Source of the DNA: Rhodospirillales bacterium
Lineage (GTDB): Bacteria; Pseudomonadota; Alphaproteobacteria; Acetobacterales; Acetobacteraceae
NCBI GenBank assembly: GCA_043744375.1
Contig: JAYTUU010000052.1
Location: 1,450 to 65,449 of the forward strand
DNA: 64,000 bases
Direction: 5' to 3'
The position numbers and the translations under genes are program-made. The notes below the pieces were generated by a model. The model saw only the letters and a list, made by a program, of their open reading frames with translations, made no database searches and was not told the origin of the DNA. Below, piece by piece: positions 3,345 to 59,951 of the stretch. Each line of letters starts with the position of its first letter. The first letter of the stretch is position 1.

Positions 3345-3434
3345 TCCAGTGCCCCTCGGTTCCTCGTGCGAAGATAACGTCGGGTGAATGAGTGGCGTCA
3401 ACAACTGATGCAGCGATGAGGGGGAAGCAATCAA

Positions 3435-3593
3435 GGCTCCGCCGGCCAAAGGCCGAGGGCCTTTGGAAACCCGATACTTTTCTTGGCTGCGTCAGCAGCC
3501 TTTGAACGATAGTCGAATTTGACTAAAGGCTGCTCGCGCAGCCAAGAAAAGTAATGGGATCAAAGGGTCCCTGACCCTTTGTGGAGGCGAGGC
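3435..3593. repeat. MITE-like nested-palindrome element, copy 1 (termini homologous to 36998..37248)
   Basis: Left arm GGCTCCGCCGGCCAAAGGCCGAGGGCCTTTGGAAACCCGATACTTTTCTTGGCTGCGTCAGCAGCCTTTGAAC pairs with right arm GACTAAAGGCTGCTCGCGCAGCCAAGAAAAGTAATGGGATCAAAGGGTCCCTGACCCTTTGTGGAGGC. No credible ORF. Confidence 0.75.
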
Positions 3594-6422: not shown

Positions 6423-6989
6423 ATGGCGGCCGATCTGAACGCACTGAAAACGGACCTAACGCGCCGCATGGATGGCGCGCTGGAAATGCTGCGCCGCGAC
6501 TTCTCGGGCCTGCGGACGGGCCGCGCCAGCCCCGCTCTGCTGGAGCCCGTGCGCGTCGAGGCCTATGGCAGCGAGGTGCCGCTGGCCCAGGTTGGCACCA
6601 TTGCCGTACCGGAGGCGCGCCTGCTCACCGTGCAGGTGTGGGACCGCTCGCTGGTCAATAATGTCGTCAAGGCGATCCGCGATTGCGGCCTCGGGCTCAA
6701 CCCGGCCGGCGACGGTCAACTGGTTCGCGTGCCCATTCCGCAATTGACCGGTGAGCGTCGGCAGGAGCTGTCGAAGGCGGCGCATCGCTATGCCGAGGGC
6801 AGCAAGGTCGCGGTGCGTGGTGTCCGGCGCGACGGGATGGAGCAGACCAAGGTGCTGGAAAAGAAGCACGAGATCGGCCAGGACGACGAGAAGCGCTGGG
6901 CCGATGAGATCCAGAAACTGACCGACCAGTATATCAAACGCATCGATGAAGTCCTTGTCGACAAGGACAGGGAAATCAAGCAGGTCTGA
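6423..6989 (+). CDS. frr: Ribosome recycling factor
   Basis: LRTGRASPALLEPVRVEAYGSEVPLAQVGTIAVPEARLLTVQVWD; 188 aa; conserved position. Confidence 0.97.
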   Translation: MAADLNALKTDLTRRMDGALEMLRRDFSGLRTGRASPALLEPVRVEAYGSEVPLAQVGTIAVPEARLLTVQVWDRSLVNNVVKAIRDCGLGLNPAGDGQLVRVPIPQLTGERRQELSKAAHRYAEGSKVAVRGVRRDGMEQTKVLEKKHEIGQDDEKRWADEIQKLTDQYIKRIDEVLVDKDREIKQV

Positions 6990-6998
6990 GTGAACCCC

Positions 6999-7775
6999 AT
7001 GGCGGCAAGCGACGCGCAGGCCAAGACGAAGGTGCCCGGAACGGCGCCGGTGGGGGGCGTTCCAGCTCTGCCCGCACCGCCGACCCATGTCGCCATCATC
7101 ATGGACGGCAATGGCCGATGGGCTGCCGCCAAGGGTCTGCCACGTGTCGCCGGGCATCGCGCGGGGGTTCAAGCGGTCCGCCGCACCATCGAGACGGCGA
7201 CCTCGCTCGGCGTCTCATGGCTTACCCTCTACGCGTTCAGCAGCGAGAACTGGCGCCGCCCGCTCAGCGAGGTGATGGACCTCACCGGGCTGCTGCGTCA
7301 CTTCCTGCGCAGCGAGATCGCCGAGTTGAAGGCCGAGGGCGTCCGCCTGCATTTCATCGGCGACCGCGCCCGCTTCGAGGGCGACATCCAGTTCGACCTC
7401 GGCGCCGCCGAGCGCGACACCGCCGCCAACACGCGGCTGAACCTGGTGATCGCGCTGTCCTATGGCGCGCGTGCCGAGATCGCCGCCGCTGCCCGTGCCG
7501 CCGCCGAGGCCGTGCGCGCCGGCACGCTCGATCCGGCCGACATCACTGAGGCCAGTTTTGCCGCGTTCCTTTCCACTGCCGGCATCCCCGACCCTGATCT
7601 GATCATTCGCACCTCGGGCGAGCAGCGGCTGTCCAATTTCCTGCTTTGGCAGAGCGCCTATGCCGAACTGGTGTTTCTCGACGTGCTCTGGCCCGATTTC
7701 GGCCCGGCGCAGTTTGCGGAAGCGCTGGCGGAATTTGCGCGGCGCGAGCGCCGCTTCGGTGCCCGCCCTGGCTGA
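6999..7775 (+). CDS. uppS: Ditrans,polycis-undecaprenyl-diphosphate synthase
   Basis: [13 protein letters not shown] and [24 protein letters not shown] motifs. GTG 6990 is an alternative start. Confidence 0.93.
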
Positions 7776-8475
7776 CCCCACCACGCAGCCGCGGCACGTC
7801 ATCGTGCCCCCTGATGGCGGGAAATGGCGCGATCTCGGCGTGCGCGTGGCCTCGGCCGCCGTGCTGCTGCCTGTGGCCCTCGGGAGCCTGTGGGCGGGCG
7901 GTTGGTACTGGACCGCGCTGGTTCTGGTCGGTGCGGCCGGCATGGCGCTGGAATGGCGCGCTTTGTGCAGGCACCGCCCCGCCCCGCTTCAGCCGCTGCT
8001 CGGCGCCGTCTATATTCTGCCGGCAGTCATTGCCCTGCTCTGGCTGCGCGATGACCCGGCGGGCGGTGCCGTGCGCGTGCTGTTCATCCTCTGCGTCGTC
8101 TGGTCCAGCGATATCGGCGCCTATATGACCGGACGGCTGCTCGGTGGCGCAAAACTTGCCCCGACCATTTCGCCCGGGAAGACCTGGTCGGGCGTGGCCG
8201 GCGGACTTGCCGCGGCAATCGCTGTTGGCTTCATCTTTGCGCGGCTCAACGACGGCTCGCCAGGCAGCGCGATGGCCATTGCGGCCCTGCTCGGCGTCGT
8301 CGCACAGGCTGGCGATCTGTTTGAGTCCGGCCTCAAGCGGTATTTCGACGTGAAGGATTCTGGCAATTCGATCCCCGGCCATGGCGGCCTGCTTGATCGT
8401 CTGGACGCGGTTCTGACGGCGGCTCCGGTCGCCGCTGCCCTTCTTCTGTTGCGTGGCGTGGAGCTTTGGCGATGA
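7759..8475 (+). CDS. cdsA: Phosphatidate cytidylyltransferase
   Basis: [29 protein letters not shown] and [17 protein letters not shown] motifs; multi-TM. Start uncertain: GTG 7759 overlaps the uppS end; the track ORF start at 7660 lies inside uppS. Confidence 0.85.
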
Positions 8476-9644
8476 GCGCGAAAACGGTCACCGTGCTCGG
8501 CAGCACCGGCAGTGTGGGCACCCAGACGGTCGAACTTCTCGCCGCCGACCCGCAGCGATTTCGCGTCCGTGCATTGGTTGGCGGCCGGCAGGCGGGGCTG
8601 CTCGCGGCCCAGGCGCGCGCGCTTGGGGCCGAGTGGGCGGTCATCAGCGACGAGGCGGCCTTCGCCGAACTGCAAGCCGCCCTCGCCGGCTCCGGGGTGC
8701 GCTGCGCCGCCGGGCGGGAGGCGGTGATCGCCGCCGCGGCTTTGCCGGCCGATTGGACCATGGCCGCCATCACCGGAGCGGCCGGGCTGGAGCCGACGCT
8801 GGCCGCCATTCGCGGCGGCGGCGCGGTTGCCTTGGCCAACAAGGAGGCGCTGGTCTGCGCCGGCGCGGTCATGCTGCGGGCCGTGCGCGATCACGGCGCC
8901 ACGCTATTGCCGGTTGATTCCGAGCACAACGCCATCTTCCAATCAATGGCCGACGGCAATCGCGGTGCGATCGAGAAGATCATCTTGACCGCCTCGGGCG
9001 GCCCGTTCCGCACGTCGAGCATGGCTGAAATGCGCTCCGCTCGCCCGGAAGCCGCGCTGAAACATCCGGTCTGGTCGATGGGGGCGAAGATCTCGATCGA
9101 CAGCGCGACGATGATGAACAAGGGCCTCGAACTGATCGAGGCGGCGCGGCTGTTCGACCTGTCGGAGAGCGCCATCGGTGTGTTGATCCACCCGCAATCC
9201 GTTATTCACGGCCTCGTCTACTACCATGACGGCAGCGTGTTGGCGCAGCTTGGCTCGCCCGACATGCGAGTGCCGATCGCCCATACCCTCGCCTGGCCGG
9301 CGCGCATGGCCACGCCGGCGCCGCGGCTCGACCTTGCGGCCGTCGCCCGGCTCGAATTCGCCGAACCCGATCCGGTGCAGTTCCCTGCCCTCGGCCTCGC
9401 CCGCGCCGCTCTCGTGGCAGGTGGCGGGGCGCCCGCGATCCTGAGCGCAGCCAACGAAATCGCCGTTGCCGCCTTCCTCGATCGCCGCATCGGCTTCCTC
9501 GACATCGTCGATATCGGCGCCCGCGTGCTCGACGCCCTCGGGGCGCCGCCCGCCGAGTCCCTCGATGCCGTGCTCGGTCTCGACGCTGCGGCCCGGGAGG
9601 CTGCCAGCCGTCTCTGTGCCCTGTGCGCCCGCCCCGCCGCCTGA
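8472..9644 (+). CDS. dxr: 1-deoxy-D-xylulose 5-phosphate reductoisomerase
   Basis: VTVLGSTGSVGTQT, LANKEALV, DSEHNAIFQ motifs; ATG 8472 overlaps the cdsA stop (ATGA). Confidence 0.95.
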   Translation: MSAKTVTVLGSTGSVGTQTVELLAADPQRFRVRALVGGRQAGLLAAQARALGAEWAVISDEAAFAELQAALAGSGVRCAAGREAVIAAAALPADWTMAAITGAAGLEPTLAAIRGGGAVALANKEALVCAGAVMLRAVRDHGATLLPVDSEHNAIFQSMADGNRGAIEKIILTASGGPFRTSSMAEMRSARPEAALKHPVWSMGAKISIDSATMMNKGLELIEAARLFDLSESAIGVLIHPQSVIHGLVYYHDGSVLAQLGSPDMRVPIAHTLAWPARMATPAPRLDLAAVARLEFAEPDPVQFPALGLARAALVAGGGAPAILSAANEIAVAAFLDRRIGFLDIVDIGARVLDALGAPPAESLDAVLGLDAAAREAASRLCALCARPAA

Positions 9645-9755
9645 GAGAAATCGTGCAAACTCTAGAGGTTTCACGAAATTAAGTTTACCCCCACCGCGCG
9701 GTTGCAGTAGGGTCGTTTAAATTACTTCTAAATACGCAAACCGTCTCATGGTTTG

Positions 9756-10889
9756 ATGCGCGAGGAAATCGCCGTGCTGGAGTTTCTGCCCGCCTTCCCA
9801 CGCGCGATCGTGGCCTTTGTTATTGTTCTCGGCATTCTCGTGTTCGTGCACGAATATGGCCACTACATCGCGGCGCGTTGGCGCGGCGTGCATGTGGAGA
9901 CGTTCTCCATCGGCTTCGGCCGCGCGCTGTTCACTTGGCGCGACCGGCGTGGCACCGTCTGGAAGGTCGGCTGGGTGCCGCTCGGCGGCTATGTGAAGCT
10001 GCACGGGCAGGAGCGGCCAGAGGATGTCGCCGCGGAGGTGCGCGCGCGCTGGATCCCCGGGCGCACCTTCCACGAGAAATCCGTGGCCTCGCGGGCCATC
10101 GTCGTGGCGGCGGGGCCGGCGGCCAATTTCGCCCTCGCGGCCGTGCTCTATTTTATCCTGTACGCCAGCGTTGGCCGGCCGATTGCGCTGCCTGTCATTG
10201 GCGAAGTGCTGGCCGATTCGGTGGCGCAGAAGGCCGGGTTGCAGGCCGGCGACCGCATCACCGGCATCGATGACGCCGCCGTTACCCGGTTTGGCGATAT
10301 CCAGCGCATCATCTTCGCCAGCCCCGGAAAACCGCTCGTGCTGCATGTCCTGCGCGCCGACTCGCCGCGCGACATTCCGATCACGCCCGAGGAACAGGTC
10401 GACGCCAAAGGCAATCGCTCTGGCAAGCTTGGCATTCGCGGCGGTGGCACGACCTTCGAACCGGTCTCGTTGCCCGAAGCACTTTGGGCCGGCGTGGACC
10501 AGACCTGGGATATCACCGTGCAGACGCTCGATGGCGTCTGGGCAATGATCAGTCAGCGTAAATCCGGCGAGGATCTCGGCGGGCCGCTGCGCATCGCGCA
10601 GATGTCGGGGCAGGTGGCTACGCTCGGATTCGCCAGCCTCATCTCCTTCATCGCGCTGCTCTCGGTCAATCTCGGGCTGATCAATCTGTTCCCCATCCCC
10701 GTGCTCGATGGCGGCCACCTGATGTTCTTCCTGGCCGAGGCCATTCGCGGCAAGCCATTGCCCGTGCGCGCGCAGGAATACGGCTACCGCGCTGGATTCG
10801 CTCTGCTGATCGGGCTGTTCGTCTTCGCCACCTGGAACGATCTGACGCATATCGGACTGTTCCGCTGGGTCGCGTCCCTGGTCGGATAG
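9756..10889 (+). CDS. rseP: RIP zinc metalloprotease RseP (M50 family)
   Basis: HEYGHY zinc motif, central PDZ-like segment, NLFPIPVLDGGH. GTG 9774 is an alternative start. Confidence 0.9.
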   Translation: MREEIAVLEFLPAFPRAIVAFVIVLGILVFVHEYGHYIAARWRGVHVETFSIGFGRALFTWRDRRGTVWKVGWVPLGGYVKLHGQERPEDVAAEVRARWIPGRTFHEKSVASRAIVVAAGPAANFALAAVLYFILYASVGRPIALPVIGEVLADSVAQKAGLQAGDRITGIDDAAVTRFGDIQRIIFASPGKPLVLHVLRADSPRDIPITPEEQVDAKGNRSGKLGIRGGGTTFEPVSLPEALWAGVDQTWDITVQTLDGVWAMISQRKSGEDLGGPLRIAQMSGQVATLGFASLISFIALLSVNLGLINLFPIPVLDGGHLMFFLAEAIRGKPLPVRAQEYGYRAGFALLIGLFVFATWNDLTHIGLFRWVASLVG

Positions 10890-11047
10890 GGCCTGCCGCC
10901 GACGCGCTCCCGCAAAGTCATGTCAGGGGGGTTGCGCTGCGCGGTTTCGGCGGGTAGCGCCATGCCGATGGTGCGGCTATTCTCCGCGCCCCGCATAGGC
11001 CAGTCGTCTCGAACCTTGGGACGGCGCTGCAACCAGGGGTATCGCCT

Positions 11048-13399
11048 TTGACTCGCACTCGCGCAGCGCTGCTTTCCGCCTTCTGCCTGCTGTTCGCCGC
11101 AGGCCCGGATCTGTCGCACCCGCCGACGGCCAGCGCCCAGGCCGTGCCTGCAAGGCCGGGCGCCGTGGCGGGCCAGGGCGGACTGGTGGGCTCGGTGAAG
11201 ATCGAGGGCAACCAGCGCATCGAGGAGGGCACGATCCGCTCCTACATGCTGCTTCAACCCGGCGACCCGTTCGACTCCGAGCAACTCGATCGCAGCCTCA
11301 AGACGCTGTTCGCCACCGGCTTGTTCAGCGACGTCACCCTGCGGCGCGAGGGTAACGCGCTGGTCGTCAAGGTCGTCGAGAACCCGATCGTCAACCGCAT
11401 CGCCTTCGAGGGCAACAAACAGGTCACCGACGAGGCGCTGCGCCCGGAGCTGCAACTGCGCGCCCGCGCGGTGTTCACCAACGCCACCGCCCAGGCCGAC
11501 CGCCAGCGCATGCTCGACCTCTACGCGCGCAAGGGCCGCTATGCCGCGCGGGTCGAACCCAAGATCATCCAGCTCGACCAGAACCGGGTCGATGTCGTCT
11601 TCGAGATCGACGAGGGCGCGAACACGCTGACCAGCCGCATCGCCTTCGTCGGCAACCGTGCCTACAGCGAGGGCAAGCTCGGCGAGGTCATCTCATCGCG
11701 TGAGGAGGCCTGGTGGCGCTTCCTGTCGACCTCCGACAGCTACGATCCCGACCGGATGAATTTCGACAAGGAGCAGCTGCGCCGCTTCTATCTGTCCAAG
11801 GGTTACGCCGATGTCGAGATCGTAAGCGCCACCGCCGAACTCGCGCCCGACCGGTCCGCCTTCTTCATCACCTTCACGATCAACGAGGGCGAACGCTACA
11901 CAGTCTCCAAGGCCGAGCTGAACGTCACGCTGAAGGGCGTTACTGCCGAGTCGCTGCAATCCCAGATGCCGTTAGACGTGGGCGACTGGTACGACGGCGA
12001 TGCCATCGAGCGCGCCGTGCAGGCGCTCAGCGACGATCTGCAGGGCCGCGGTTTTCCCTTCGTGGAAATTAAGCCGCGCGTGCAGCGCGATCGGGAAAAG
12101 CGCACCATCGAGATTGTGCTCGATGTCGGCGAGGGCCCGCGCGTCTACATCGAACGCATCGACATCACCGGCAACCAGCGCACCTATGACAAGGTGATCC
12201 GCCGCGAGTTCCGGGTCGGCGAGGGCGATCCGTTCAACGTCGCCTTGGTGCGCCTGTCGCGCCAGCGCATCGAGGACCTGGAATACTTCAACCGCATCGA
12301 GATCCTGTCGCAAACCGGTTCGGCACCCGACAAGGTTGTCCTGAACGCGGTCATCGAGGAAAAGGCGACCGGCCAGCTCCTGCTCGGCGGTGGCTATTCG
12401 ACCGATATCGGGGCGCTCGTCTCGTTCGGTCTGCGCGAGAAGAACCTGGTCGGCACCGGCATCGACGGCAGCTTCAACACCGTGCTGGCGCAGAAGCAGA
12501 GTCAGATCAATTTCTCGCTCACCGACCCGTATTTCCTCGACCGCAACCTCGTGGCCGGGTTCGATATCTTCCACATCGTGCAGAACAACACCGACATCGC
12601 CGAGTATCGCGAGAGGCGCACCGGCGTGAGCCTCCGGCTGGGCTACCAGTTCAGCGAGCATCTCCGCCAGTTGATCACCTACTCGGCGGTGGAGCGTAAC
12701 ATCTACGCCGTCGGCGCGAATGCCAGCGTTTATGTCAAGGACGCCAAGGGAGCCTCGCTGCTGTCGCAGATCAGCCAGGCACTGACGCTGGACTATCGCG
12801 ACAGCCGGGTCGATCCGCGCCGCGGCTTCGTGATCCGCCTTGGCACCGATTTCGCCGGCCTCGGCGGCGATGCCCGCTTTGCGCGCGCCAAGATCGACGC
12901 GTCCTACTACATCCCGCTCGAGCGGGTATTCGGAGACCCCGATTGGGTCCTCGCGATCAACGCGGGGGTGGGCCAGATGTTCACCTTCGGCCGCAACGAG
13001 CGCATCATCGACCGGTTCTTCCTCGGCGGCGACAATTTGCGCGGCTTCCAGACCGGTGGCGTCGGTCCGCACTCGATCTCGACCGGGGACAGCATCGGCG
13101 GCCGGTTCATCTGGACGCAATCGACCGAGCTGCGGTTCCCCTTGCCGGTGTCTGCCGATCTCGGCATGACCGGCCGGGCCTTCGTCGATGTCGGCTCGCT
13201 GTCGGAGTTGAATCAGCTCCTGCTCAACGGTGTTCCGCAGGCCTTCACCAACAGCGGCGCGCCGCGGGTCGGCGCTGGCGTCGGCATTTCGTGGAAAACA
13301 CCGTTCGGGCTGATCAATATCGATCTCGGGCAGGCGGTGGTGAAGAAGAAATTCGACCAGACGCAGCTGTTGCGCTTTGGTTTCGGCACAAGGTTCTAA
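11048..13399 (+). CDS. bamA: Outer membrane protein assembly factor BamA
   Basis: Signal peptide, repeated POTRA-like segments (IRVEGNQRI..., IAFEGNKQV..., IAFVGNRAY..., IDITGNQRTYD), C-terminal beta-barrel ending RFGFGTRF. TTG start. Confidence 0.93.
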   Translation: MTRTRAALLSAFCLLFAAGPDLSHPPTASAQAVPARPGAVAGQGGLVGSVKIEGNQRIEEGTIRSYMLLQPGDPFDSEQLDRSLKTLFATGLFSDVTLRREGNALVVKVVENPIVNRIAFEGNKQVTDEALRPELQLRARAVFTNATAQADRQRMLDLYARKGRYAARVEPKIIQLDQNRVDVVFEIDEGANTLTSRIAFVGNRAYSEGKLGEVISSREEAWWRFLSTSDSYDPDRMNFDKEQLRRFYLSKGYADVEIVSATAELAPDRSAFFITFTINEGERYTVSKAELNVTLKGVTAESLQSQMPLDVGDWYDGDAIERAVQALSDDLQGRGFPFVEIKPRVQRDREKRTIEIVLDVGEGPRVYIERIDITGNQRTYDKVIRREFRVGEGDPFNVALVRLSRQRIEDLEYFNRIEILSQTGSAPDKVVLNAVIEEKATGQLLLGGGYSTDIGALVSFGLREKNLVGTGIDGSFNTVLAQKQSQINFSLTDPYFLDRNLVAGFDIFHIVQNNTDIAEYRERRTGVSLRLGYQFSEHLRQLITYSAVERNIYAVGANASVYVKDAKGASLLSQISQALTLDYRDSRVDPRRGFVIRLGTDFAGLGGDARFARAKIDASYYIPLERVFGDPDWVLAINAGVGQMFTFGRNERIIDRFFLGGDNLRGFQTGGVGPHSISTGDSIGGRFIWTQSTELRFPLPVSADLGMTGRAFVDVGSLSELNQLLLNGVPQAFTNSGAPRVGAGVGISWKTPFGLINIDLGQAVVKKKFDQTQLLRFGFGTRF

Positions 13400-13404
13400 G
13401 CGAA

Positions 13405-14250
13405 ATGAAGCGTCGCGTGTTTGCCATCGCCGTTGCTGCCCTCGCCGGGCTGACGGTTTCATTTGCCTGGCTTGTCCCGCCGGCAGCGGCGCAGGGCCAG
13501 GATTTTTTCGTGCCGAACCAACGCCCCGCGCCGCAGGCCGGCCAGCGCCCGCCGGCTGCCGCCCCAGGCCCCGCGCGCGCCGCGCCGCGTCCGGCACCGA
13601 CCAACCAGCCAGCACCGCAGGAGGAAGCCCAGGCACCGATCCAGGCGCCGATGCCGCCGGTTCCGGACTTGCCGGCGCTCCCCCGTGGTGCCGCCGCGCC
13701 GGCGGCCATCATCGGCTTGATCGGCGTGCCCGAGGTGATGCGCGCCTCCGCCGCCGCTCAGTTGGTTGACCGCGTCATCGGCGAACGCCGCGAGAAATTG
13801 AACGAGGATGCCCAGAAGGAGCAGCAGGCCTGGCGCGACCTCCAGCAGGCGCTCGCCAACCAGCGCACGACCCTTTCGCCGGAGCAGATACGCACCAAGG
13901 AGCGTGAACTGCAGGACCGCATCACCAGCGCGCAGCAGCGCTTCCAGAACCGCGGCCGGATCATTCAGGAAGCGGCGCAGTACGGCCTCAACCAGATCCA
14001 GGCCTCGCTGATCGCGGTGATCCGTCAGGTATCGGAAAGCCGTGGCATGAACCTGATCCTGCACCGCCAGCAGGTCGCGTTGAACGTCAACGAGTTCGAT
14101 ATCACCGAGCAAGTTGCCGAACAGCTCAACAAGCTGCTGCCGACGGTGATCATTCCGCCTGATGGCGTGTCGCCCAATCCCCCGGCGGCGGCCGGTACCC
14201 CTGCCGCTAGTACCCCCGCCGCAACGCCGCCCGCACCGCCGAAGCGCTGA
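13405..14250 (+). CDS. OmpH/Skp-family periplasmic chaperone with a Pro/Ala-rich insert
   Basis: [30 protein letters not shown] signal peptide, coiled-coil region ([25 protein letters not shown]...), position between bamA and lpxD. The track ORF (from 12943) overlaps bamA. Confidence 0.8.
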
Positions 14251-14254
14251 TCCG

Positions 14255-15304
14255 ATGGCGGGCGATCCGCGCTTCTTTGCCCGCCCCGCGCCGATCTCGA
14301 TCGCGGCCGTATGCGCGGCGGCCGGCGGAAGCGCCGATGGGGATGGCTTTCTGCTCACCGGCATAGCGCCGCTGCAGACGGCGACGGCGACCGAGCTGAG
14401 CTTTCTCGACAATCGCCGCTATCTGCCTGCGCTCAAGGAGTGCCGCGCCGGTGCTGTGATCGTGCATCCCGACATGGCCGCGCATGTGCCGGAGGGCACG
14501 CGCGCCATTGTCACCCCTCAGCCCTATCTTGGCTGGGCGCGTGCTGCCGCCCTTTTCTTTCCGGCCCCGCCGACCACCCCAGGCGTACATAGCACCGCGG
14601 TCGTGGACGAAACCGCACGGATCGACCCATCGGCCGAGATTGGCCCGTTCGCGGTAGTTGCCGCCGGCGCTGAGGTCGGCGCGCGCTGCCGTGTCGGACC
14701 GGGTGCCGTGATCGGTGCCGGCGTCGTGCTCGGTGCGGATTGCCGGATCGGTGCCCATGCCAGCATCAGCCACGCCTTGCTTGGCGCACGGGTCTACATC
14801 TATCCCGGCGCGCGGATCGGCCAGGAGGGCTTCGGTTTTGCCTCCGGCCCCACCGGCCTTGTCACCGTTCCCCAGCTTGGCCGCGTGCTGATCGGCGACG
14901 ATGTCGAGATCGGCGCCAATTCCTGTGTCGACCGTGGCAGCGCCCAGGATACCGTGATCGGCGCCGGCTCGCGGCTCGATAACCTCGTGCAGATCGGCCA
15001 CAACGTGCAGCTTGGCCGCTGCTGCATCGTCGTCGCCCATGCCGGCATTTCCGGTTCCGCGGTGCTGGAGGATTTCGTCGTCATCGCCGGGCAGGCGGGT
15101 GTCGCGGGCCATCTGCGCATCGGCAAGGGCGCCAAGATCGGTGCGCAAGCGGGTGTGATATCGGACGTTCCAGCCGGCCAGGATTGGGTCGGCAGCCCGG
15201 CCCAGCCGGCGCGGGAGATGTTTCGGCAGGTGGCGATACTCAAGCGCCTCGCCGTCCGCACCCCGGCGAAAGATCAGAACGCCACGCGAAAGGAGACGAC
15301 ATGA
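14255..15304 (+). CDS. lpxD: UDP-3-O-acylglucosamine N-acyltransferase
   Basis: [19 protein letters not shown]..., long left-handed beta-helix hexapeptide repeats, conserved position. Confidence 0.93.
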
Positions 15305-15810
15305 GCGATCAGCCCCCCGCGGCTTCCGAGCCGCGGCGTATCGACCGCATCGACATCAACCGCATCATGCTCGGCCTGCCGCACCGGTTCCCCTTTCTGC
15401 TGATCGATCGGGTCGTCGATTTCGTGCATGACCAGTCGGCCACCGGCATCAAGAACGTTTCGATCAACGAGCCGTTCTTCCAGGGCCACTTCCCGGGCAA
15501 CTTCGTCATGCCTGGTGTGCTGATCGTCGAGGCGATGTGCCAGACGGCGGGCGTGGTGGTGTGCGAAACCCTCGGCCCGGAGGACGGCTACGGCATCAGC
15601 GTCTATTTCATGTCCATCGAAGGGGCGAAATTCCGCCGCCCCGTGGTGCCCGGCGACCAGGTGCACCTGCACGTCACGAAAGACCGCCGGCGGGGCGGGG
15701 TCTGGCGGTTCAATGCGGAAGCGAAGGTGGATGGCGTGAAAGTGGCAGAGGCGACGTTCACCGCGATGGTGATCCCGAAAGACAAGACCGCGGCGGCCCC
15801 CACATCGTGA
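15301..15810 (+). CDS. fabZ: 3-hydroxyacyl-ACP dehydratase FabZ
   Basis: [13 protein letters not shown] and [21 protein letters not shown] motifs; ATG 15301 overlaps the lpxD stop (ATGA). Confidence 0.96.
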
Positions 15811-16619
15811 CGGGCATTCATCCAACCACGCTCATCGCGCCCGGCGCGCGGATTGCCGACGGTGTCGAGATCGGGCCGTGGTGCACGGTCGGCGCGGACG
15901 TGGAGCTTGCCGCCGGCGTGCGGCTGATCAGCCACGTCGTCGTCGAGGGCCACACGAGAATTGCCGCCGGCGCGGTGCTCTACCCGTTCAGCACCGTCGG
16001 CATGGCGCCGCAGGATCTCAAGTATAAGAATGAACCGACGCTCGTGGAGATCGGCGAACGTACGCTGATCCGCGAGCACGTCACCATCCATCGCGGCACC
16101 CCGAACGGCGCCGGCATTACCCGCGTTGGCGCCGACTGCATGCTGATGAACGTCGTCCATGTCGCGCATGACTGTACGATTGGCAACGGCGTCATCATCG
16201 CCAACAACGTGGTGATGGGCGGCCATGTCCAGATCGGCGACCATGCGGTGATCGGCGGCAGTTCGGCGATCCACCAGTTTGTCCGCATCGGCCGCGCGGC
16301 GATGATCGGTGGCGTTTCGGGCGTGGAGGCCGATGTCGTGCCGTTCGGCGTGGTGCTCGGCAACCGCGCGCGCCTGGCCGGGCTCAACGTCATCGGCATG
16401 CGCCGCCGCGGCTTCGACCGGGCGCAGATCCACGGAGTCCGCGCCGCGTTCCGGGAGATGTTCTGGGGCAGCGGCGTGTTCGCCGAACGGGTCGCCGTCG
16501 TACGCGCCCGCATGGCCGGCGATCCGCTGATCGACGAGATGCTCGCCTTCATGGCCGTGCCGAGTAAGCGCGGCCTGGTGCGCGCGGGGTCACCGAGCCA
16601 CGACGACAGCGACAGCTAG
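15807..16619 (+). CDS. lpxA: Acyl-ACP--UDP-N-acetylglucosamine O-acyltransferase
   Basis: IHPTTLIAPGARIADGVEIGPWCTVG hexapeptide repeats; GTG 15807 overlaps the fabZ stop (GTGA). Confidence 0.93.
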   Translation: MTGIHPTTLIAPGARIADGVEIGPWCTVGADVELAAGVRLISHVVVEGHTRIAAGAVLYPFSTVGMAPQDLKYKNEPTLVEIGERTLIREHVTIHRGTPNGAGITRVGADCMLMNVVHVAHDCTIGNGVIIANNVVMGGHVQIGDHAVIGGSSAIHQFVRIGRAAMIGGVSGVEADVVPFGVVLGNRARLAGLNVIGMRRRGFDRAQIHGVRAAFREMFWGSGVFAERVAVVRARMAGDPLIDEMLAFMAVPSKRGLVRAGSPSHDDSDS

Positions 16620-16622
16620 ACG

Positions 16623-17471
16623 ATGACCGATCGCCCGGCGCTCGGTATTCTCGCGGGGTCCGGCCCACTGCCCGGGCGCGTCGCCTCGGCGGCCCGGGCG
16701 GCGGGGCGGGCTGTATTCATCGTCGGCCTCGAAGGCTTCGCGGAGAAGGCCGTGCTCGCTCCCTACGCGCATGATTTCGCCCGCATGGGGGCGGCCGGGC
16801 GCATCCTCGACCTGTTGCGCGCGAATAACTGCAAGGATCTCGTGCTGATTGGCCCGGTCCGCCGGCCGTCGATTTTCGACGCGCGGCCGGACGGGATGGG
16901 CGCGAAACTCCTGGCACGCGTCGGCCGCGCGGCCTTCGGTGGCGACGATTCGCTGCTGGCCGCCGTGATCAAGGTGCTGGGCGAGGAGGGTTTTTCTGTC
17001 ATTGGCGCCCATGAAATCCTCACCGAGGCGCAGGCCCCGCGCGGCCTGCTGACCGCCGCCGCCCCGGACGCGCAGGCGATGAGCGATATCGCGCGCGGCG
17101 TCGCGGTCTGCCGCGCCCTCGGGGCCGTCGATGTCGGGCAGGGCTGCGTCATCCAGTCCGGCCTCGTGCTCGCCGTCGAGGCGATCGAGGGCACTGACGC
17201 CATGCTCGCACGCGCCAGCCTGCACCGCCGCGGCGGCGCCGGCGGCGTGCTGGTGAAAATGTCCAAACCCGGCCAGGAACGCCGTGCCGACCTGCCGACC
17301 ATCGGGGCCGTGACGGTCGCGAACGCCGTTGCCGCCGGCCTGCGCGGCATCGCCTTCGAAGCCGGCGGCGCTTTGTTCGCCGAGCGCGACGCCGCCATCG
17401 CCGCCGCCGACGCGGCCGGCCTATTCCTCATCGGCATTGATGCTCAATCGCAGCAGGAGACGGCCGCATGA
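16623..17471 (+). CDS. lpxI: UDP-2,3-diacylglucosamine diphosphatase LpxI (DUF1009 family)
   Basis: GILAGSGPLPGRVA, GQGCVIQSGLVLAVEAIEGTDAML, KPGQERRADLPTIG; the usual alphaproteobacterial position after lpxA. Confidence 0.8.
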   Translation: MTDRPALGILAGSGPLPGRVASAARAAGRAVFIVGLEGFAEKAVLAPYAHDFARMGAAGRILDLLRANNCKDLVLIGPVRRPSIFDARPDGMGAKLLARVGRAAFGGDDSLLAAVIKVLGEEGFSVIGAHEILTEAQAPRGLLTAAAPDAQAMSDIARGVAVCRALGAVDVGQGCVIQSGLVLAVEAIEGTDAMLARASLHRRGGAGGVLVKMSKPGQERRADLPTIGAVTVANAVAAGLRGIAFEAGGALFAERDAAIAAADAAGLFLIGIDAQSQQETAA

Positions 17472-18322
17472 AAATCGGCGCCGCGATGTTCTTCACCGAC
17501 TATTCGATGACCCCGATGGCCCTCGGCAAGGCGCTCGAAGAGCGAGGGTTCGACTCGCTGTGGGCGCCCGAGCACTCCCACATCCCGGCATCCCGCGCCT
17601 CGGCCTTCCCCTCCGGCGGCGAATTGCCGAAGAAATACTACGATGCCATGGACCCCTTCGTGACGTTGACGGCCGCCGCCTGCGCCACCACCACCCTGCT
17701 GGTCGGCACCGGCATCTGCCTGGTGCCGCAGCGCGACCCGATCCAGACTGCCAAGCTCGTCGCCTCCCTCGATCAGGTCAGCAATGGTCGCTTCCTGTTC
17801 GGCGTCGGCAATGGCTGGAACGCCGACGAGATGGCCAATCACGGCACCGATTTCACCACGCGCCACAAGCTCGCCCGCGAGCGCATCGAGGCGATGCAGG
17901 CGATCTGGACGCAGTCCAGGGCCGAATATCACGGCGAGATGGTCAATTTCGATCCGATCATGGCGTGGCCCAAACCGGTTCAGAAGCCACATCCGCCGAT
18001 CATCGTTGGCGGCGCCTTCCCCTACGGCCCGCGCCGCGCCATCCGCTACGGCAATGGCTGGATGCCGCACCGGACACGCCCGAACTACACCGATGTCGCG
18101 GAGTTCGTTCCGCAATTCCGCGACATGGTCGTCCAGGCCGGGCGCGATCCGGCGGACGTGCCGGTGACCATCTGGGGCGCGCGCGAAGATTTTTCCCTGC
18201 TCGAACGCGACCGCGCGCTGGGTGTGGTGCGGCTCGTCGTCAGCCTCGACTCGGCGCGGGACGATGCGATCCTGCCGGAACTCGACCGCTGGGCCGCATT
18301 GATCCGCCGCCTCGGGGATTGA
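17468..18322 (+). CDS. Luciferase-like monooxygenase (LLM) family, F420/flavin-dependent oxidoreductase type
   Basis: MKIGAAMFFTDYSMTPMALGKALEERGFDSLWAPEHSHIP..., GRFLFGVGNGWNADEM, PHPPIIVGG; ATG overlaps the lpxI stop (ATGA). Confidence 0.8.
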   Translation: MKIGAAMFFTDYSMTPMALGKALEERGFDSLWAPEHSHIPASRASAFPSGGELPKKYYDAMDPFVTLTAAACATTTLLVGTGICLVPQRDPIQTAKLVASLDQVSNGRFLFGVGNGWNADEMANHGTDFTTRHKLARERIEAMQAIWTQSRAEYHGEMVNFDPIMAWPKPVQKPHPPIIVGGAFPYGPRRAIRYGNGWMPHRTRPNYTDVAEFVPQFRDMVVQAGRDPADVPVTIWGAREDFSLLERDRALGVVRLVVSLDSARDDAILPELDRWAALIRRLGD

Positions 18323-18424
18323 TCACGCAGCGCGGACGTTGCGCGGCGCGCCGGCAACCCCGCGGGTGAACTGGCGGGCAATGTTGGCGGCTCCGAGGAT
18401 GCCGTAGCGGAGCGGGGAGGGCAT
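18323..18424 (-). pseudogene. 5' remnant of a Gfo/Idh/MocA oxidoreductase gene (truncated duplicate of 56542..57570)
   Basis: My translation MPSPLRYGILGAANIARQFTRGVAGAPRNVRAA* compares with MTSPLRYGILGAANIARQFTRGVAGSPLATV... for the intact gene. It ends 1 nt after the LLM gene stop. Confidence 0.75.
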
Positions 18425-19392
18425 GGTCGGCTCCTGGATTTTCGGGAGAATGCGGCAGTCCGGAGGGATCGACCAGGGGATATTTATTACGAATTAGTAA
18501 CAAAATGCTCGTGCATCTGCGGCTGGTGCGGCATTCCCGGGAGGCGGCGCCGGGGGTGGCCAGGGCGGTGGGCGCAGGAGAGCGGGCGGCGTGGCCGGCC
18601 GGGGCGCGTTGGGCGGGTTGGTGAATGGATGCCGGGCATGCGGCGCGAGGTCGGCGGGGGTGTGCGCCGGCGGCTGGTCCGGCGACTGGTCCGGCTGTGC
18701 CATGCGTGCGGTGCGCGGGGCGCTCGGCGGGTTGGGTTGGCGCGCGGGCCGGTTGGCGGGCGGCGTGCGGGGTTGGCTGTCCTGGCACGGGCGGTTGGGC
18801 AAGGCGGGCGGCAGGCCGGCGGTCTGGAAGAAAGCCAGCAGGTGGGCGAGGCCATCGCGCAGATGGCCGATTCGCCGCCAAACTGGCCCGGCCCAGGCGC
18901 CGAACAGACGCTGGCGCAGGGCGAGCAACGGCGTGGCGGGGGCCAGCATTGCATCCAGGCACAGGATGATCGCCTCCAGCACACGACACAGAGCCGCCGC
19001 GTCGGAGGCGCCAGGCCGGGGTTGGGGGGGAGCAATGTTCATATTGTGTTCCTAGCAAACCGCTACGCCGGACGCAAGGAAATTTTTCCTCTAAGCGCTA
19101 TTTTTTCCGTGGTGCGATGCGGGAGAAGCGGACGCCGAGACTGATACTGGCCGAACCGCCGGCGATGGGGGCGGTGAAGGATCGCGACGCCGGGTGCGGG
19201 CACGCTGCCGCCAGTGAGCGCGGCGCCCCCGCGCGCGCCGGGCTGGGGGAGCGGCATGGGCAGGCAGTTGCGGGGGGCGACGAGTGCGACGGCGATGCAG
19301 CAGGCGCTTTGCACCGCCTGGGCATGCGCGGGCGCCTTCGAGCGGGATGGGCAGAGAGTGGACAGCCGTATCGACGAGACAGCTTCGAATGC
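18340..19392. repeat. R1: ~1.05-kb direct repeat, paralogous to R2 at 57486..58567
   Basis: By-eye alignment shows long identical runs in the same orientation, e.g. GGCGGCGTGCGGGGTTGGCTGTCCTGGCACGGGCGGTTGGGCAAGGCGGGCGGC and CATATTGTGTTCCTAGCAAACCG. Left boundary is approximate (+/-15 nt). Confidence 0.9.
18494..19042 (-). CDS. Hypothetical protein: ~80-aa helical N-terminal domain plus a long proline-rich tail (paralogue at 58194)
   Basis: MNIAPPQPRPGASDAAALCRVLEAIILCLDAMLAPATPLLALRQRLFGAWAGPVWRRIGHLRDGLAHLLAFFQ...; the frame is kept in both R copies despite indels. I recognise no family. Confidence 0.45.
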   Translation of the reverse strand: MNIAPPQPRPGASDAAALCRVLEAIILCLDAMLAPATPLLALRQRLFGAWAGPVWRRIGHLRDGLAHLLAFFQTAGLPPALPNRPCQDSQPRTPPANRPARQPNPPSAPRTARMAQPDQSPDQPPAHTPADLAPHARHPFTNPPNAPRPATPPALLRPPPWPPPAPPPGNAAPAADARAFCY

Positions 19393-19720
19393 TTGAGAGT
19401 CCGTCCGGAAACTCCTTCAACGATTGCATAATCTCCGGGTCATGAGCCGGATCGACGCAAGCTTGAGGAATGACAGCGCATTTCGTGTCCGGTTCTCGAA
19501 ATCCTTGGCCAAACGCCGGCACCGGCCGAGCCACGCGAACGTCCGTTCGACCACCCAACGGCGTGGCAAAACGACGAAGCCTTGAGCCGCGTCTGAGCGC
19601 TTGATGATCTCGACCTGCATTTGCGTCAGGAGCTGCGCCACACCTTGCTCGAAGATCGGCCCCTGGTAGCCACCATCGGCAAATACCTTGCGCAGAAACG
19701 GGTAGAGGCCGAACAGCGCA
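19393..19720 (-). mobile_element. IS5-family transposase gene, 3' fragment only (truncated)
   Basis: C-terminal sequence ...ALFGLYPFLRKVFADGGYQGPIFEQGVAQLLTQMQVEIIKRSDAAQGFVVLPRRWVVERTFAWLGRCRRLAKDFENRTRNALSFLKLASIRLMTRRL (stop at 19417). The upstream part of the track ORF is junk. Confidence 0.8.
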
Positions 19721-19743
19721 GTATTATGTAGCAACCGCCACCA
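19721..19743. repeat. 23-bp inverted repeat, left copy (partner 21755..21777)
   Basis: GTATTATGTAGCAACCGCCACCA; its exact reverse complement occurs at 21755-21777. Confidence 0.9.
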
Positions 19744-19787
19744 CGGAGCGGAAGCGGAGTGCCCGGCCTTCGGGGTAGCCTCCGGGC

Positions 19788-20222
19788 ATGAAGATCGCCA
19801 TGAACGCCCTGCGGCGCAAGCACGCCATGCTCCTCGGCCAGATCGAAGCCGCCGAGCGTGCGATTGAACCGCTCCGCGCCAAGTTCGTGCTGGCAGACGC
19901 CACCATGCTCCTGTTCGAGCCCGACGCCGAGCCAATCCTGATCCCAGGCGTGCGGCCAATCAAGCGCTGCCAATGGTTCAAGCATGGCGAACAGAAGCGG
20001 CTTTGTGTCCGCGCCCTGCGCGAGGCTGACGCGCCCCGGACTACCACCCAGGTTGCCCGCTACGTCATGGCGGCGAAGAAGCTGCCCGAGGATGGGTTGC
20101 CGAGCCTGGGTGTCATCCGCCGGCAGGTTCGCATCGTCATGTGCCGCATGGAGAAACTGCGGGCCATTCGGCGGATCGTGGAGGCGCCGGATACGTGGTG
20201 GGAGTTGGCGGGTGGAGATTAG
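19788..20222 (+). CDS. Hypothetical 144-aa protein (N-terminal coiled-coil-like segment, basic C-terminal half)
   Basis: GC3-rich codon usage: MKIAMNALRRKHAMLLGQIEAAERAIEPLRAKFVLADATMLLFEPDAEP...RRQVRIVMCRMEKLRAIRRIVE. Followed by hairpin GGCTACGGCGACGTAGCC. Confidence 0.6.
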   Translation: MKIAMNALRRKHAMLLGQIEAAERAIEPLRAKFVLADATMLLFEPDAEPILIPGVRPIKRCQWFKHGEQKRLCVRALREADAPRTTTQVARYVMAAKKLPEDGLPSLGVIRRQVRIVMCRMEKLRAIRRIVEAPDTWWELAGGD

Positions 20223-20547
20223 TAGCCTCGGCTACGGCGACGTAGCCGTAGTCCGAGATGGAGACACAAGCTCAGCAGTTGCCGATCACGAAAATGTCAT
20301 ATATAAAATTGACCGATTCAAAACAACGGGTTGTCACGATTCCCCATGCCTTAGCCCCAGATTTTGATTCCCTACTTGCGATTCGAACTTGCAGATTCGT
20401 ACAAGGCAAGTGGAACCGGACGGTTTTGGATGGGAGCCTTGACACTTTCGCGGGACGCTGTAATCGACACCGTCCCCAAATATAGGGGTGAATACCAAGT
20501 TTGCACCCCGATCGCTGGTTCGCCAGCCACAGGGAGAGGATAGAGTT

Positions 20548-20784
20548 ATGTCGCACCAAAAAACCAGCGTCCGTGGTCGTGAAGACCCGGGAGGGAAAAG
20601 CGCGGTCGATTCGGCTTTCAATTGGGAGCATCTAATCAAGCAGGTCGTTGCTCGCTTTGCTCGCGGCAACATCTCCGCTCAAAATGCACGCATCCTTCTC
20701 CCGGCCGAGCAGGCGAGCGAGAACGCTTTGGCTAGGCGCATTGCGCGGAAATGGAAAGCACGCGGCGAGCGGAAGGCGGCTTAA
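20548..20784 (+). CDS. Hypothetical small protein in the AT-rich segment
   Basis: ATG 20548 preceded by GGGAGAGGA; MSHQKTSVRGREDPGGKSAVDSAFNWEHLIKQVVARFARGNISAQNARILLPAEQ... The track ORF starts at 20488. May be the front half of a frameshifted gene with 20751..21482. Confidence 0.35.
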   Translation: MSHQKTSVRGREDPGGKSAVDSAFNWEHLIKQVVARFARGNISAQNARILLPAEQASENALARRIARKWKARGERKAA

Positions 20785-21482
20785 TACTACGAGTGGCGAT
20801 TAGAACGGCGTGCGCTGGGGACGAATCTGTGATAGATGACAGTGAAGTGGAGGCGGCCTTTCGCCTGCTCATCCAAGAGTGGAACGTTGCGGAGCGCCGC
20901 ATCAAGAAGGCTGAGCATGTTCGCGCCGGTGAAGTTGTGGCGTCCGCGATTTTTGAGCTTCGCTATGCGGGTCGGAAGGTTATGGATGCCGTCCAAATTC
21001 TTCTCTCGGGTGATTGGAAAACGAATGAAGAGCGCCGCCGGCTCGTTCTGACATATTTGGCCGACGCCACTGAAGATTGCGTCAAGGCTAAGCATGACGC
21101 GATAGACTCTATGCTGGATTTCAGCACAAGGTGGTTTTACGAGACCGAAAGAATATTGAGTCTGGGTAGCTTAGTGAAATTTTTCCCCGATTACGTGAAT
21201 ATCACATCGGAAATCAGCGAAATACAAGAAAATATTGCGGCGTCTAGAGAGAATAGAATTGATTCACGCGATGGAATTTATGACGATATAGAATCGACAA
21301 AATTAGAAAGTATTCTAAGTCTTTTTCAGAACATGCGAAACTCCCATAAAAGAGTAACAGCGGCGGTTCGTAAAGAGCGTTGTGTTGAGAGATTTCTGAT
21401 CTGGTGCGCTATAATTGGTACAGTTTTGGGGGTTGTGGGAATTGCGGCGGCCTATTGGATGTGGAAGCATCCTATTTCATAG
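20751..21482 (+). CDS. Hypothetical helical protein with one C-terminal transmembrane helix (AT-rich, foreign codon usage)
   Basis: ...EVVASAIFELRYAGRKVMDAVQILL...ADATEDCVKAKHDAIDSMLDF...; C-terminal FLIWCAIIGTVLGVVGIAAAYWMW. Start uncertain (ATG 20751 or GTG 20793). Confidence 0.55.
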   Translation: MESTRRAEGGLILRVAIRTACAGDESVIDDSEVEAAFRLLIQEWNVAERRIKKAEHVRAGEVVASAIFELRYAGRKVMDAVQILLSGDWKTNEERRRLVLTYLADATEDCVKAKHDAIDSMLDFSTRWFYETERILSLGSLVKFFPDYVNITSEISEIQENIAASRENRIDSRDGIYDDIESTKLESILSLFQNMRNSHKRVTAAVRKERCVERFLIWCAIIGTVLGVVGIAAAYWMWKHPIS

Positions 21483-21524
21483 CTAATATTCATTACGACG
21501 TTAAGCCGCCTTCTGCGCCCGTTG

Positions 21525-21754
21525 TCAGTAGCCTGACCGATCCACGCTCGGCCGGCTGGCCATCGCCAAGGCGACGACGTTGCGAACCTGCGTCCCGTTG
21601 GGCACGCGGCGGTTGTCCTCGCGCCACGAGGCTTCCTGCGCATAGCGGATCAAGTAGCTGCCCGCGATGTGGTGATGATGCCCGATCTCGGCCCGGCGCA
21701 TCCGGCTAAAGAATTCTTCGGCGCCGTTGGTGTAGACGCCCGTCGATTTCCCTA
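21525..21754 (-). mobile_element. IS1595-family-type transposase gene, C-terminal fragment (truncated)
   Basis: My minus-strand translation: ...GKSTGVYTNGAEEFFSRMRRAEIGHHHHIAGSYLIRYAQEASWREDNRRVPNGTQVRNVVALAMASRPSVDRSGY*. Below the track's ORF size cutoff. Family call is from memory of similar transposase C-termini. Confidence 0.65.
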
Positions 21755-21777
21755 TGGTGGCGGTTGCTACATAATAC
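21755..21777. repeat. 23-bp inverted repeat, right copy (partner 19721..19743)
   Basis: TGGTGGCGGTTGCTACATAATAC, the exact reverse complement of 19721-19743. Confidence 0.9.
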
Positions 21778-21779
21778 CG

Positions 21780-21892
21780 GAACAGGGCAGATTTCCTGAC
21801 CTAATGGGATAGAGCTACCTCAGGGCGGCTGCCCTCGGGACTCCGCAGCCAAACGGATAGACGTTTTTTGGTTCTTTTTTTCAAAAAAGAAC
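21780..21892. repeat. A1: ~110-bp double-palindrome repeat (copies A2 59645..59783, A3 60654..60757)
   Basis: GAACAGGGCAGATTTCCTGACCTAATG...ACCTCAGGGCGGCTGCCCTCGGGACTCCGCAGCCAAAC...TTTTTTGGTTCTTTTTTTCAAAAAAGAAC. Confidence 0.85.
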
Positions 21893-22024
21893 AGCGCTTC
21901 TTTTTGTCGAGGGCCAACGCGCATGGCGCCGGGCACCCTGGAAGCCGCATCCGGAGTGCTGTAGGAAGTGGTGGATGTTCCATTGTCGTTTGATGATTAT
22001 GTATCAGCATAATCCGATTTTATC

Positions 22025-36935: not shown

Positions 36936-36997
36936 CGGGGAGGCTCCGCTTCGGACATCATCGGCAGGAAGAATGGCGGATCAAGGTAGGAAAGCAA

Positions 36998-37248
36998 GGC
37001 TCCGCCGGCAAAGGGCCGGGGGCCCTTTGAACCCGTGACTTCTGCGGCTGGATCAACGGCCTTCCGATGATATCTGCGTTCTTGCTTGCGCCGCAGGCCA
37101 TCGCCACCTTGGAACGCCTGTTCGGTCGCGAAGAATTCCGGGCTTCGCCAGCCCAACGGCAAGATCGCGCCGCTTCAACCGAAGGCCGCCGATCCAGCCG
37201 CGAGCAGTAATGGGTTCAAAGGGCCCCCGGCCCTTTGCCGCCGGAGGC
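36998..37248. repeat. MITE-like nested-palindrome element, copy 2 (termini homologous to 3435..3593)
   Basis: Left GGCTCCGCCGGCAAAGGGCCGGGGGCCCTTTGAACCCGTGACTTCTGCGGCTGGATCAACGGCCTTC pairs with right GAAGGCCGCCGATCCAGCCGCGAGCAGTAATGGGTTCAAAGGGCCCCCGGCCCTTTGCCGCCGGAGGC. Confidence 0.8.
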
Positions 37249-37252
37249 ACGC

Positions 37253-37579
37253 TTACGTCTTCGTTCCGCCTGTGAGCCGGGAGAAGGTCTGGCGGTCCTT
37301 GTTCTCCTGCATGAGCATGCGGAAGCCCGGGATATCGCCGAGGCTGAGGCCGCTGGGCAGGCCGGTTTCTTCGTCGGGGGTGATTTTGCCGTAGGTCTCG
37401 CCGGAGATTTTCTCCCATTTACCAGCGGGCTTCTTGGCTTCGATGTGCACGACGGTGGCCTTGAACACCATCCGCACGATCGCCTCTTTCGGTGCCGAGG
37501 GCTTGGTGAGGCACGGGCATCCGGCGAGGATTTGCCAGCCGTTTGACAGTGCCCAGGCGGTCAGTTCGATCTTGTCCAT
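37253..37579 (-). CDS. Hypothetical 108-aa protein downstream of prfB
   Basis: MDKIELTAWALSNGWQILAGCPCLTKPSAPKEAIVRMVFKATVVHIEAKKPAGKWEKISGE...; starts 8 nt after the prfB stop. No family recognised. Confidence 0.5.
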   Translation of the reverse strand: MDKIELTAWALSNGWQILAGCPCLTKPSAPKEAIVRMVFKATVVHIEAKKPAGKWEKISGETYGKITPDEETGLPSGLSLGDIPGFRMLMQENKDRQTFSRLTGGTKT

Positions 37580-56519: not shown

Positions 56520-56541
56520 ACCAAGTGTCCCCTCGCGGTTT

Positions 56542-58567: not shown

Positions 58568-58625
58568 ACCTCAGAGACCCACCCTATGGAAGCTCCGGTG
58601 GTGGACGTGGATAGAATTCTCCATT

Positions 58626-59937: not shown

Positions 59938-59951
59938 TATTCCTTGGAGAT

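Follow-up and report, generated by a model that had tools for sequence, protein, structure and literature searches.

Tandem duplications in Salmonella and E. coli form between repetitive extragenic palindromic (REP) sequences, insertion sequences (IS) or rrn repeats, and their join points are remodelled by deletion, as known from the work of the Roth and Andersson laboratories. Low-copy repeats around essential genes can mediate duplication of the interval between them, but not its viable deletion. Sequence divergence and mismatch repair are barriers to homologous exchange. We analysed a stretch of 64,000 nucleotides (the window; all positions refer to it) from a Rhodospirillales bacterium of the family Acetobacteraceae, located at positions 1450-65449 of contig JAYTUU010000052.1 (C52) in assembly GCA_043744375.1. 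This draft genome (G000) comprises 3.74 Mb in 160 contigs, with a completeness of 94%. The window carries a pair of direct repeats, R1 and R2; R1 abuts a luciferase-like monooxygenase (LLM) gene, and R2 runs into a Gfo/Idh/MocA oxidoreductase gene (gfo). We found that the pair is an intragenomic segmental duplication with R2 at the ancestral and R1 at the derived locus. It is an ordinary relic of genome evolution, one more example of an already known kind of event, and does not point to a new mechanism.

The repeat pair and its ancestral copy

Repeat finding, MAFFT alignment and a search of the draft genome with the repeat placed R1 at 18343-19397 and R2 at 57489-58572 (features of both read on the minus strand), in the same orientation. 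The search (1293 bits, E = 0) returned two copies only, both on contig C52, and the repeat finder divided the pair into six collinear blocks, whose starts are offset by 39140-39176 nt. The two copies agreed at 937 of 1041 aligned bases (90.0%), with 104 mismatches spread along the whole length and six indels of 6, 12, 12, 1, 25 and 1 nt. The longest identical run was 75 nt, and 12 runs were at least 25 nt long. In a self-comparison of the genome, R1/R2 was the sole repeat longer than 1 kb at an identity of at least 85%. A first-pass annotation of this DNA had described direct repeats of about 1.05 kb at 18340-19392 and 57486-58567 and had judged the duplication not to be recent. The recomputed edges agree with these boundaries within 5 nt, the similarity extends over the full length and is not short or patchy, and the 10% divergence and the indels show that the duplication is old. 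These two same-orientation copies, with a similarity far above chance, are therefore a segmental duplication within one genome.

The same annotation had raised the possibility of an assembly artefact, in which the contig would be chimeric or R1 a strain variant, so that the two copies would not sit in one genome. The fragmented and incomplete state of the draft leaves room for such an error, and the relatives are lake metagenome-assembled genomes (MAGs). However, each identical run of at least 25 nt is flanked at its two ends by differences between R1 and R2, which means that neither copy is a hybrid of the other. Both junctions of R1 lead into unrelated sequence with nothing shared that could mislead an assembler, and the flanks of both copies are unique in the genome, as are the IS5 remnant and the 2-kb insert next to R1 (see below). 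No other duplicated DNA of about 90% identity was found in the bin, and the genes between the copies are single copy. We consider an assembly or binning artefact quite improbable.

To assign the polarity of the pair, we compared seven congeners. The order ftsY-mtaB-dapF-gfo-(spacer)-rpmI-rplT-pheS is kept in six of them (G002-G007). In the window, R2 runs into the intact gfo gene (56542-57573, minus strand, 343 aa), as had been noted earlier; it was identified by its Pfam N- and C-terminal domains and by NCBIfam, and lies next to dapF in the same number of congeners. The spacer between gfo and rpmI measures 90-120 bp in G004, G005 and G006, and 1.6-2 kb in G002, G003 and G007, where it contains an orphan open reading frame (ORF) and an intact gene for a small secreted protein. 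The counterpart of R2 in G007 is 70% identical over about 950 nt, and partial counterparts are present in G003 and G002. Among 80 gfo loci fetched from species representatives, R-like DNA was found at three, those of G002, G003 and G007 only. No R1-like copy lies beside the LLM gene in any relative examined, so that R1 was found in G000 only. The gfo context is conserved in the outgroups, whereas that of R1 is absent from them and falls on a synteny breakpoint; hence R2 represents the ancestral copy and R1 the derived one. The relatives are MAGs of uncultured freshwater Acetobacteraceae/Rhodospirillales, suggesting that G000 is probably a MAG as well.

Contents and decay of the two copies

Starting at its outer end, the minus strand of the repeat carries a secreted-protein pseudogene, the orphan ORF, an AT-rich stretch, the Gfo promoter and ribosome binding site, and gfo codons 1 to about 25-28. 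In R1, the last part forms a 33-codon ORF (MPSPLRYGILGAANIARQFTRGVAGAPRNVRAA, then a stop; 18323-18424, minus strand), identified by its translation and by alignment to R2 and Gfo. Its homology to the intact gene extends over about 25-28 codons, with 3 of 82 bases different, and its stop directly adjoins the LLM stop codon at 18320-18322, in agreement with the earlier description of a truncated Gfo beside that stop. The R1 promoter carries a 6-nt deletion and is further from the G007 sequence than that of R2, a state that fits decay.

The orphan ORF encodes 182 aa in R1 (18494-19042, minus strand), and its second copy in R2 starts with an ATG at 58194. The protein has a helical N-terminal part of about 85 aa, followed by a proline-rich tail, and matched no Pfam or PADLOC model. 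A search of 5.8 billion proteins returned only the protein itself, and a search of 1.84 billion representatives returned itself and one true relative (197 aa), the remaining matches being of low complexity. Between G003 and G002, the N-terminal half showed a ratio of nonsynonymous to synonymous substitution rates (dN/dS) of 0.23, which marks the orphan as a real gene in that lineage. From these searches, the gene appears to be restricted to the genus.

The secreted-protein pseudogene (19060-19397 in R1, minus strand) was recognised when both copies and the intact genes of G007, G003 and G002, five sequences in all, were aligned. These orthologues encode a signal peptide and the C-terminal end ...NRLSLIAPP, and their dN/dS values are 0.21-0.25. 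Both copies in G000 share a 57-nt deletion, a 2-nt frameshift and the loss of the start and signal-peptide region, indicating that the gene was dead before the duplication. The stretch from dapF to gfo also contains a small ORF that encodes a signal peptide (56091-56522, minus strand). It was considered as a paralogue of the secreted-protein gene and rejected, the resemblance being an 11-residue match at the end of the signal peptide (motif AHAQA..S.CC).

To follow the fate of the two copies, we used G007 as the outgroup and assigned 42 changes to R1 and 33 to R2. Within the orphan ORF, dN/dS between R1 and R2 was 0.87, and the changes were distributed over the three codon positions as 23/19/20. 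Both copies have thus drifted about equally, without detectable constraint at the protein level. The in-frame 12-nt indels were dismissed as evidence for selection: both are located in 12-nt direct repeats, and slippage there produces lengths that are multiples of 12. Rfam reported no RNA family at the gathering score in the repeat (one sub-threshold match, E = 0.3), and a promoter and terminator scan of R1 detected nothing. Taken together, R1 is, with high confidence, a real, old and functionless partial copy of the R2 region. In annotation, three features of R1, namely its gfo fragment, its copy of the orphan ORF and its secreted-protein pseudogene, should be classed as relics and neither as genes nor as regulatory RNA.

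Edges of R1 and the route of duplication

On its left side, R1 meets the LLM gene (17468-18322, plus strand; Pfam Bac_luciferase, 1.8e-49), the last gene of a conserved lpx...LLM block. Synteny over 6844-18316 is conserved in G007, G003, G002 and G006, and also in G005. The gfo homology fades between 18343 and about 18330, that is 1-20 nt from the LLM stop. In G007, G003, G006 and G005, a convergent gene for a 121-aa membrane protein follows LLM after 5-25 nt, and further genes come after it; their counterparts in G000 are located on contig C61, next to murJ. Beyond the right side of R1, rluB is preceded in all five relatives compared by a gene that in G000 sits on contig C135, which ends in a dispersed 160-nt repeat. 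These displaced neighbours of LLM and rluB show that the block formed by R1, the IS sequences and A1 (see below) fills the junction of two synteny blocks.

The genus in general has a very fluid gene order. Compared with contigs C1, C43 and C139 of G005, the window breaks up into a mosaic of four or more synteny blocks, its 22-53 kb interval being a mosaic too, and the murJ-gpsA adjacency varies among congeners. The genome of G000 is 0.5-2 Mb smaller than those of its congeners. The repeat pair marks a rearrangement junction in a lineage of unusually fluid gene order.

On its right side, R1 ends no more than 4 nt from where an IS5-family element terminates (window sequence ...GAGTTTCCGGACGGACTC TCA / A GCATTCG...). 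This element is a remnant at 19398-19720 (minus strand). It retains its terminus (...TTTCCGGACGGACTC plus TCA), and of its DDE transposase (Pfam DDE_Tnp_1) only the last 100 codons are left, at 19417-19719. Copies of its intact multi-copy relatives diverge right after ...CCGGAC(G/C)GACTC plus TNA, which places the edge at the IS end. Inside the remnant lies a low-GC insertion of 2.06 kb (2057 bp; 19721-21777) with verified perfect 23-bp inverted repeats and a GC content of 0.51-0.58. An AT-rich palindrome, GATTATGTATCAGCATAATC, at 21985-22015 just upstream of rluB resembles the inverted-repeat tip GTATTATGTAGCAAC of this 2-kb element, and may be a solo IS-end scar.

Homology between the two loci resumes 2.4 kb beyond R1. 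The segment A1 (21780-21906, plus strand) is composed of 66 locus-specific nucleotides and a genome-wide AT-rich hairpin repeat, and matches 59645-59760 over 117 nt at 89.7% identity. Its partner by this match, A2 (59645-59783, plus strand), lies beyond R2. The left 66 nt of A1 are found only at A1, at A2 and in part at a third site, A3, while the right part of about 60 nt is the generic hairpin repeat, of which A1 carries 14 nt more than A2 or A3. R and A are collinear at both loci, in the same order and orientation and at about 90% identity. This collinearity and equal divergence indicate that the duplicated piece most likely measured at least 2.3 kb (57489-59783) and was larger than R itself. 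An IS5 insertion followed by an adjacent deletion in copy 1 would explain both inner boundaries by events in that copy alone.

We then weighed how this piece came to lie beside LLM. A composite transposon or an IS-mobilised segment was rejected: the IS5 remnant is present on the right only, the left side abuts the LLM stop, and there is no IS5 beside R2. A foreign origin, in which R1 and IS5 would have been acquired horizontally from a sister lineage of about 90% identity and inserted downstream of LLM, would suit the 10% divergence, which is large for an intragenomic repeat, and the low-GC mobile-element debris in which R1 is embedded. However, R1 and R2 share the pseudogene lesions and the left A sequence found nowhere else, the derived changes are balanced between them (42 versus 33), the GC content of R is host-like (0.71), and no donor-like sequence was found in the genome or metagenome collections. 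We regard a foreign copy as improbable.

The placement of the copy points to another route. The sequence gfo'-R1...A1 ends at 21906, and the unit that starts at 21907 ends with gfo-R2...A2, so that a copy of the distal end of the unit lies directly upstream of its start. Tandem duplication is favoured because of this placement, in direct orientation and 38 kb away, for which we estimate a chance of about 1% at random positions in 3.7 Mb. R2 is the native region upstream of gfo, and R1 a lineage-specific, decaying partial copy of it. Together with an origin of R1 by tandem duplication, this forms the best explanation, which as a whole we hold tentatively and at somewhat under an even chance. 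That the R1...A1 block is the join-point relic of a unit of about 38 kb, later trimmed, is possible, and we put it forward with slightly more reserve. The tandem duplication and the order of events are what we infer from the present arrangement, whereas the repeat, its polarity, the IS edge, the collinearity of R and A, the synteny breakpoint and the absence of detectable constraint were observed.

In this scheme, a segment of about 38 kb (about 21907-59783), which begins just before rluB and extends to the hairpin repeat on the far side of R2, would first have been duplicated in tandem, probably by a crossover at the dispersed AT-rich hairpin repeats that created the novel junction A1/rluB. 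A deletion or rearrangement would then have removed nearly all of the left copy and kept its last 2.3 kb or so (gfo codons 1-28, R, the low-GC islet and A), joining this surviving piece to the LLM stop codon. Next, an IS5-family element would have inserted at the outer end of R1, and an IS-adjacent deletion would have taken most of IS5 and the DNA up to A1. An IS1595-type element would finally have landed in the IS5 remnant, and both copies would have drifted about equally to 10% divergence. A1 may be a recombinant hairpin repeat at the join point, as it joins left sequence of the A2 type to a longer generic piece than A2 or A3 carry. In the relatives, no such repeat lies upstream of rluB.

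Several points weigh against this explanation. No relative with an average nucleotide identity above 90% and no independent assembly was found, hence neither the state before duplication nor an intact tandem state was seen. In the search for an independent assembly, an exact look-up of the LLM protein returned nothing, and a 30-mer spanning the LLM/R1 junction was absent from genome and metagenome collections; a 40-mer internal to R was absent from the metagenome collection. The tandem model also needs LLM to have been beside the left copy already, and because the genes that ancestrally flanked LLM and rluB are still present at other places in the genome, further rearrangements are required. 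Finally, R1 and R2 diverge to different extents along their length (3.7-17.4%; chi-square test, p = 7e-5), with 3.7% in the gfo 5' end, 5.5% in the N-terminal half of the orphan ORF, 8.7% in the gfo promoter, 9.1% in the secreted-protein pseudogene and 17.4% in the proline-rich half of the orphan ORF, and the clock is therefore blurred. The unevenness may come from slippage-prone sequence, local mutation bias or old patchy gene conversion.

The main rival is a dispersed, non-tandem local copy, in which the 2.3-kb piece upstream of gfo would have been copied straight into the LLM/rluB junction without a 38-kb intermediate, by replication template switching or an IS5-associated event. Such a copy would need fewer separate steps at the left junction, and it would suit the position of R1, which sits exactly at the synteny breakpoint and touches the IS5 terminus, as well as the very fluid gene order of the genus. 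On the other hand, a single IS remnant is present, on one side; the left edge and the surroundings of R2 lack an IS, and the copied piece is not framed by a target-site duplication. Ordinary transposition would predict neither proximity nor direct orientation, and to our knowledge templated filler of kilobase size is uncommon in bacteria. We consider this local route rather unlikely, and keep the duplicated and trimmed tandem unit as our working explanation.

The bracketed interval, the R2 neighbourhood and known systems

The interval between the copies (21907-57488) was annotated with NCBIfam. It contains rluB, mutL, pgi, ileS, ribF, prfB, mrcA (PBP1a), rne, tkt, gap, pgk, ftsY, mtaB and dapF, together with two peptidases, an amidase and most of gfo, all single copy in G000; the gene list of the first-pass annotation was correct. 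That annotation had also predicted that deletion of the interval would be lethal, and the single-copy state of its essential genes supports this. By analogy with model bacteria, in which ileS, prfB, ftsY and ribF are essential, deletion by recombination between R1 and R2 should indeed be lethal. Its further claim, that the repeats are substrates for RecA-mediated amplification, stands in part: duplication is possible in principle, but the pair is a poor substrate. With 10% divergence, a maximal identical run of 75 nt and an intact mutL, established knowledge of homologous exchange would make R1/R2 a weak recombination substrate.

We therefore considered whether the repeats are maintained as a functional module for reversible, RecA-mediated amplification of the 38-kb block (tkt-gap-pgk, rne, ileS and others) as a dosage adaptation. 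The direct orientation, the 12 identical runs of at least 25 nt and the abundance of central-metabolism genes in the interval would suit such a role. However, the repeats show no sign of selection, 10% divergence has built up without homogenisation, R1 is being eroded by IS insertions, and the arrangement is found in no relative, making a maintained module hardly credible. A related proposal is that the collinear blocks R1...A1 and R2...A2 form a standing unit, with reversible tandem amplification of the block in a subpopulation of this uncultured freshwater Acetobacteraceae lineage in nature. This is very unlikely; if it were true, a recurrent cycle of dosage adaptation, acting on a block with tkt-gap-pgk, rne, ileS, prfB and mutL, would have left the fixed relic as its visible trace.

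An integrated element with attL/attR sites was rejected as an explanation for the pair, the repeats being 1 kb long and 10% diverged, with no tRNA supported by Rfam and no integrase among the interval ORFs scanned; all of these were housekeeping or ordinary enzymes, in a scan that was not exhaustive. ARAGORN called a 96-nt tRNA-Ala(GGC) at 38786-38881, inside the 3' end of mrcA. This is probably a false positive, as Rfam found no tRNA at the gathering score anywhere in the window.

On the other side of R2 lies a low-GC islet (58573-59644; GC 0.54-0.59) without Pfam or PADLOC match, of which 246 nt match contig C49 at 89%. It contains an orphan ORF (58626-59492, minus strand, low GC, 288 aa) and, as read from the translation, an IS3-family orfA-like fragment; the ORF is probably shorter in truth, since its N-terminal part overlaps this fragment. 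A decayed IS5 terminus beside R2 (58573-58610) was also considered and rejected, its resemblance being weak and not significant. Further on, A2 is followed by a mazE-mazF toxin-antitoxin pair (59952-60547, plus strand; Pfam MazE-like, 3.2e-25, and PemK_toxin, 8.1e-19) and by A3 (60654-60757, plus strand). A3 lies just upstream of rpmI, its ancestral position, G007 having the same repeat directly upstream of rpmI. A2 and A3 share 104 nt at 91% identity as direct repeats on either side of mazE-mazF, an arrangement that suggests insertion of the gene pair as a cassette, the local repeat being duplicated in the process.

The gfo-rpmI spacer (57574-60840 in the window; L035, L036 and L037 in relatives) is an insertion hot spot across the genus. 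Judged from translations alone, it contains a GIY-YIG-like ORF in G007, XRE-like ORFs in G003 and G002, and in G002 a VOC-like ORF besides; the G000 spacer contains an orphan ORF, the IS3-like fragment and mazEF. Two dispersed repeats were also observed. The AT-rich double-hairpin repeat of about 75 nt (...AACGGATAAAAGTTTTTTGGTTCTTTTTTTCAAAAAAGAACAGCGCTTCTTTTTGAAAAAAGAAGCAAAAACTT) occurs at 21846-21906, 59711-59760 and 60684-60733, with about 40 further copies on other contigs of this genome of 68% GC. It is conserved across the genus (L035 in G007, L037 in G002 and L041 in G005), and could be terminator-like or a REP or miniature inverted-repeat transposable element (MITE). A GC-rich dispersed repeat of about 160 nt, with copies 92-98% identical, occurs at C135:1-160, at dozens of contig ends, and at 36992-37254 and 3422-3581 in the window; it is the main cause of the assembly fragmentation.

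Compared with the join points of Salmonella and E. coli duplications, the locus has a copy of the distal end directly upstream of the start of the segment in direct orientation, a dispersed hairpin repeat at the novel junction, and most of one copy gone. Unlike those transient laboratory events, the duplication here is ancient (10% diverged) and fixed, no intermediate was seen, and its left junction falls on a synteny breakpoint. At its right edge, R1 resembles an IS5-family insertion with a TNA target duplication followed by an IS-adjacent deletion: this edge is an IS terminus with GGACTC plus TCA, as in the intact multi-copy relatives, and the transposase is cut to its C-terminal 100 aa. In contrast to a pure IS5 event, the IS accounts for the right edge and for the loss of DNA between R1 and A1 only, not for the duplication. 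The pair also resembles low-copy repeats that bracket essential genes, being direct repeats of about 1 kb, 39 kb apart, with single-copy essential genes between them; unlike rrn or IS copies, however, their 10% divergence and 75-nt maximal run should make exchange much less likely. If the tandem-duplication explanation is true, the locus would be a fossil, preserved in nature, of the duplication with subsequent trimming that is familiar from laboratory selections, and would not be new in kind.

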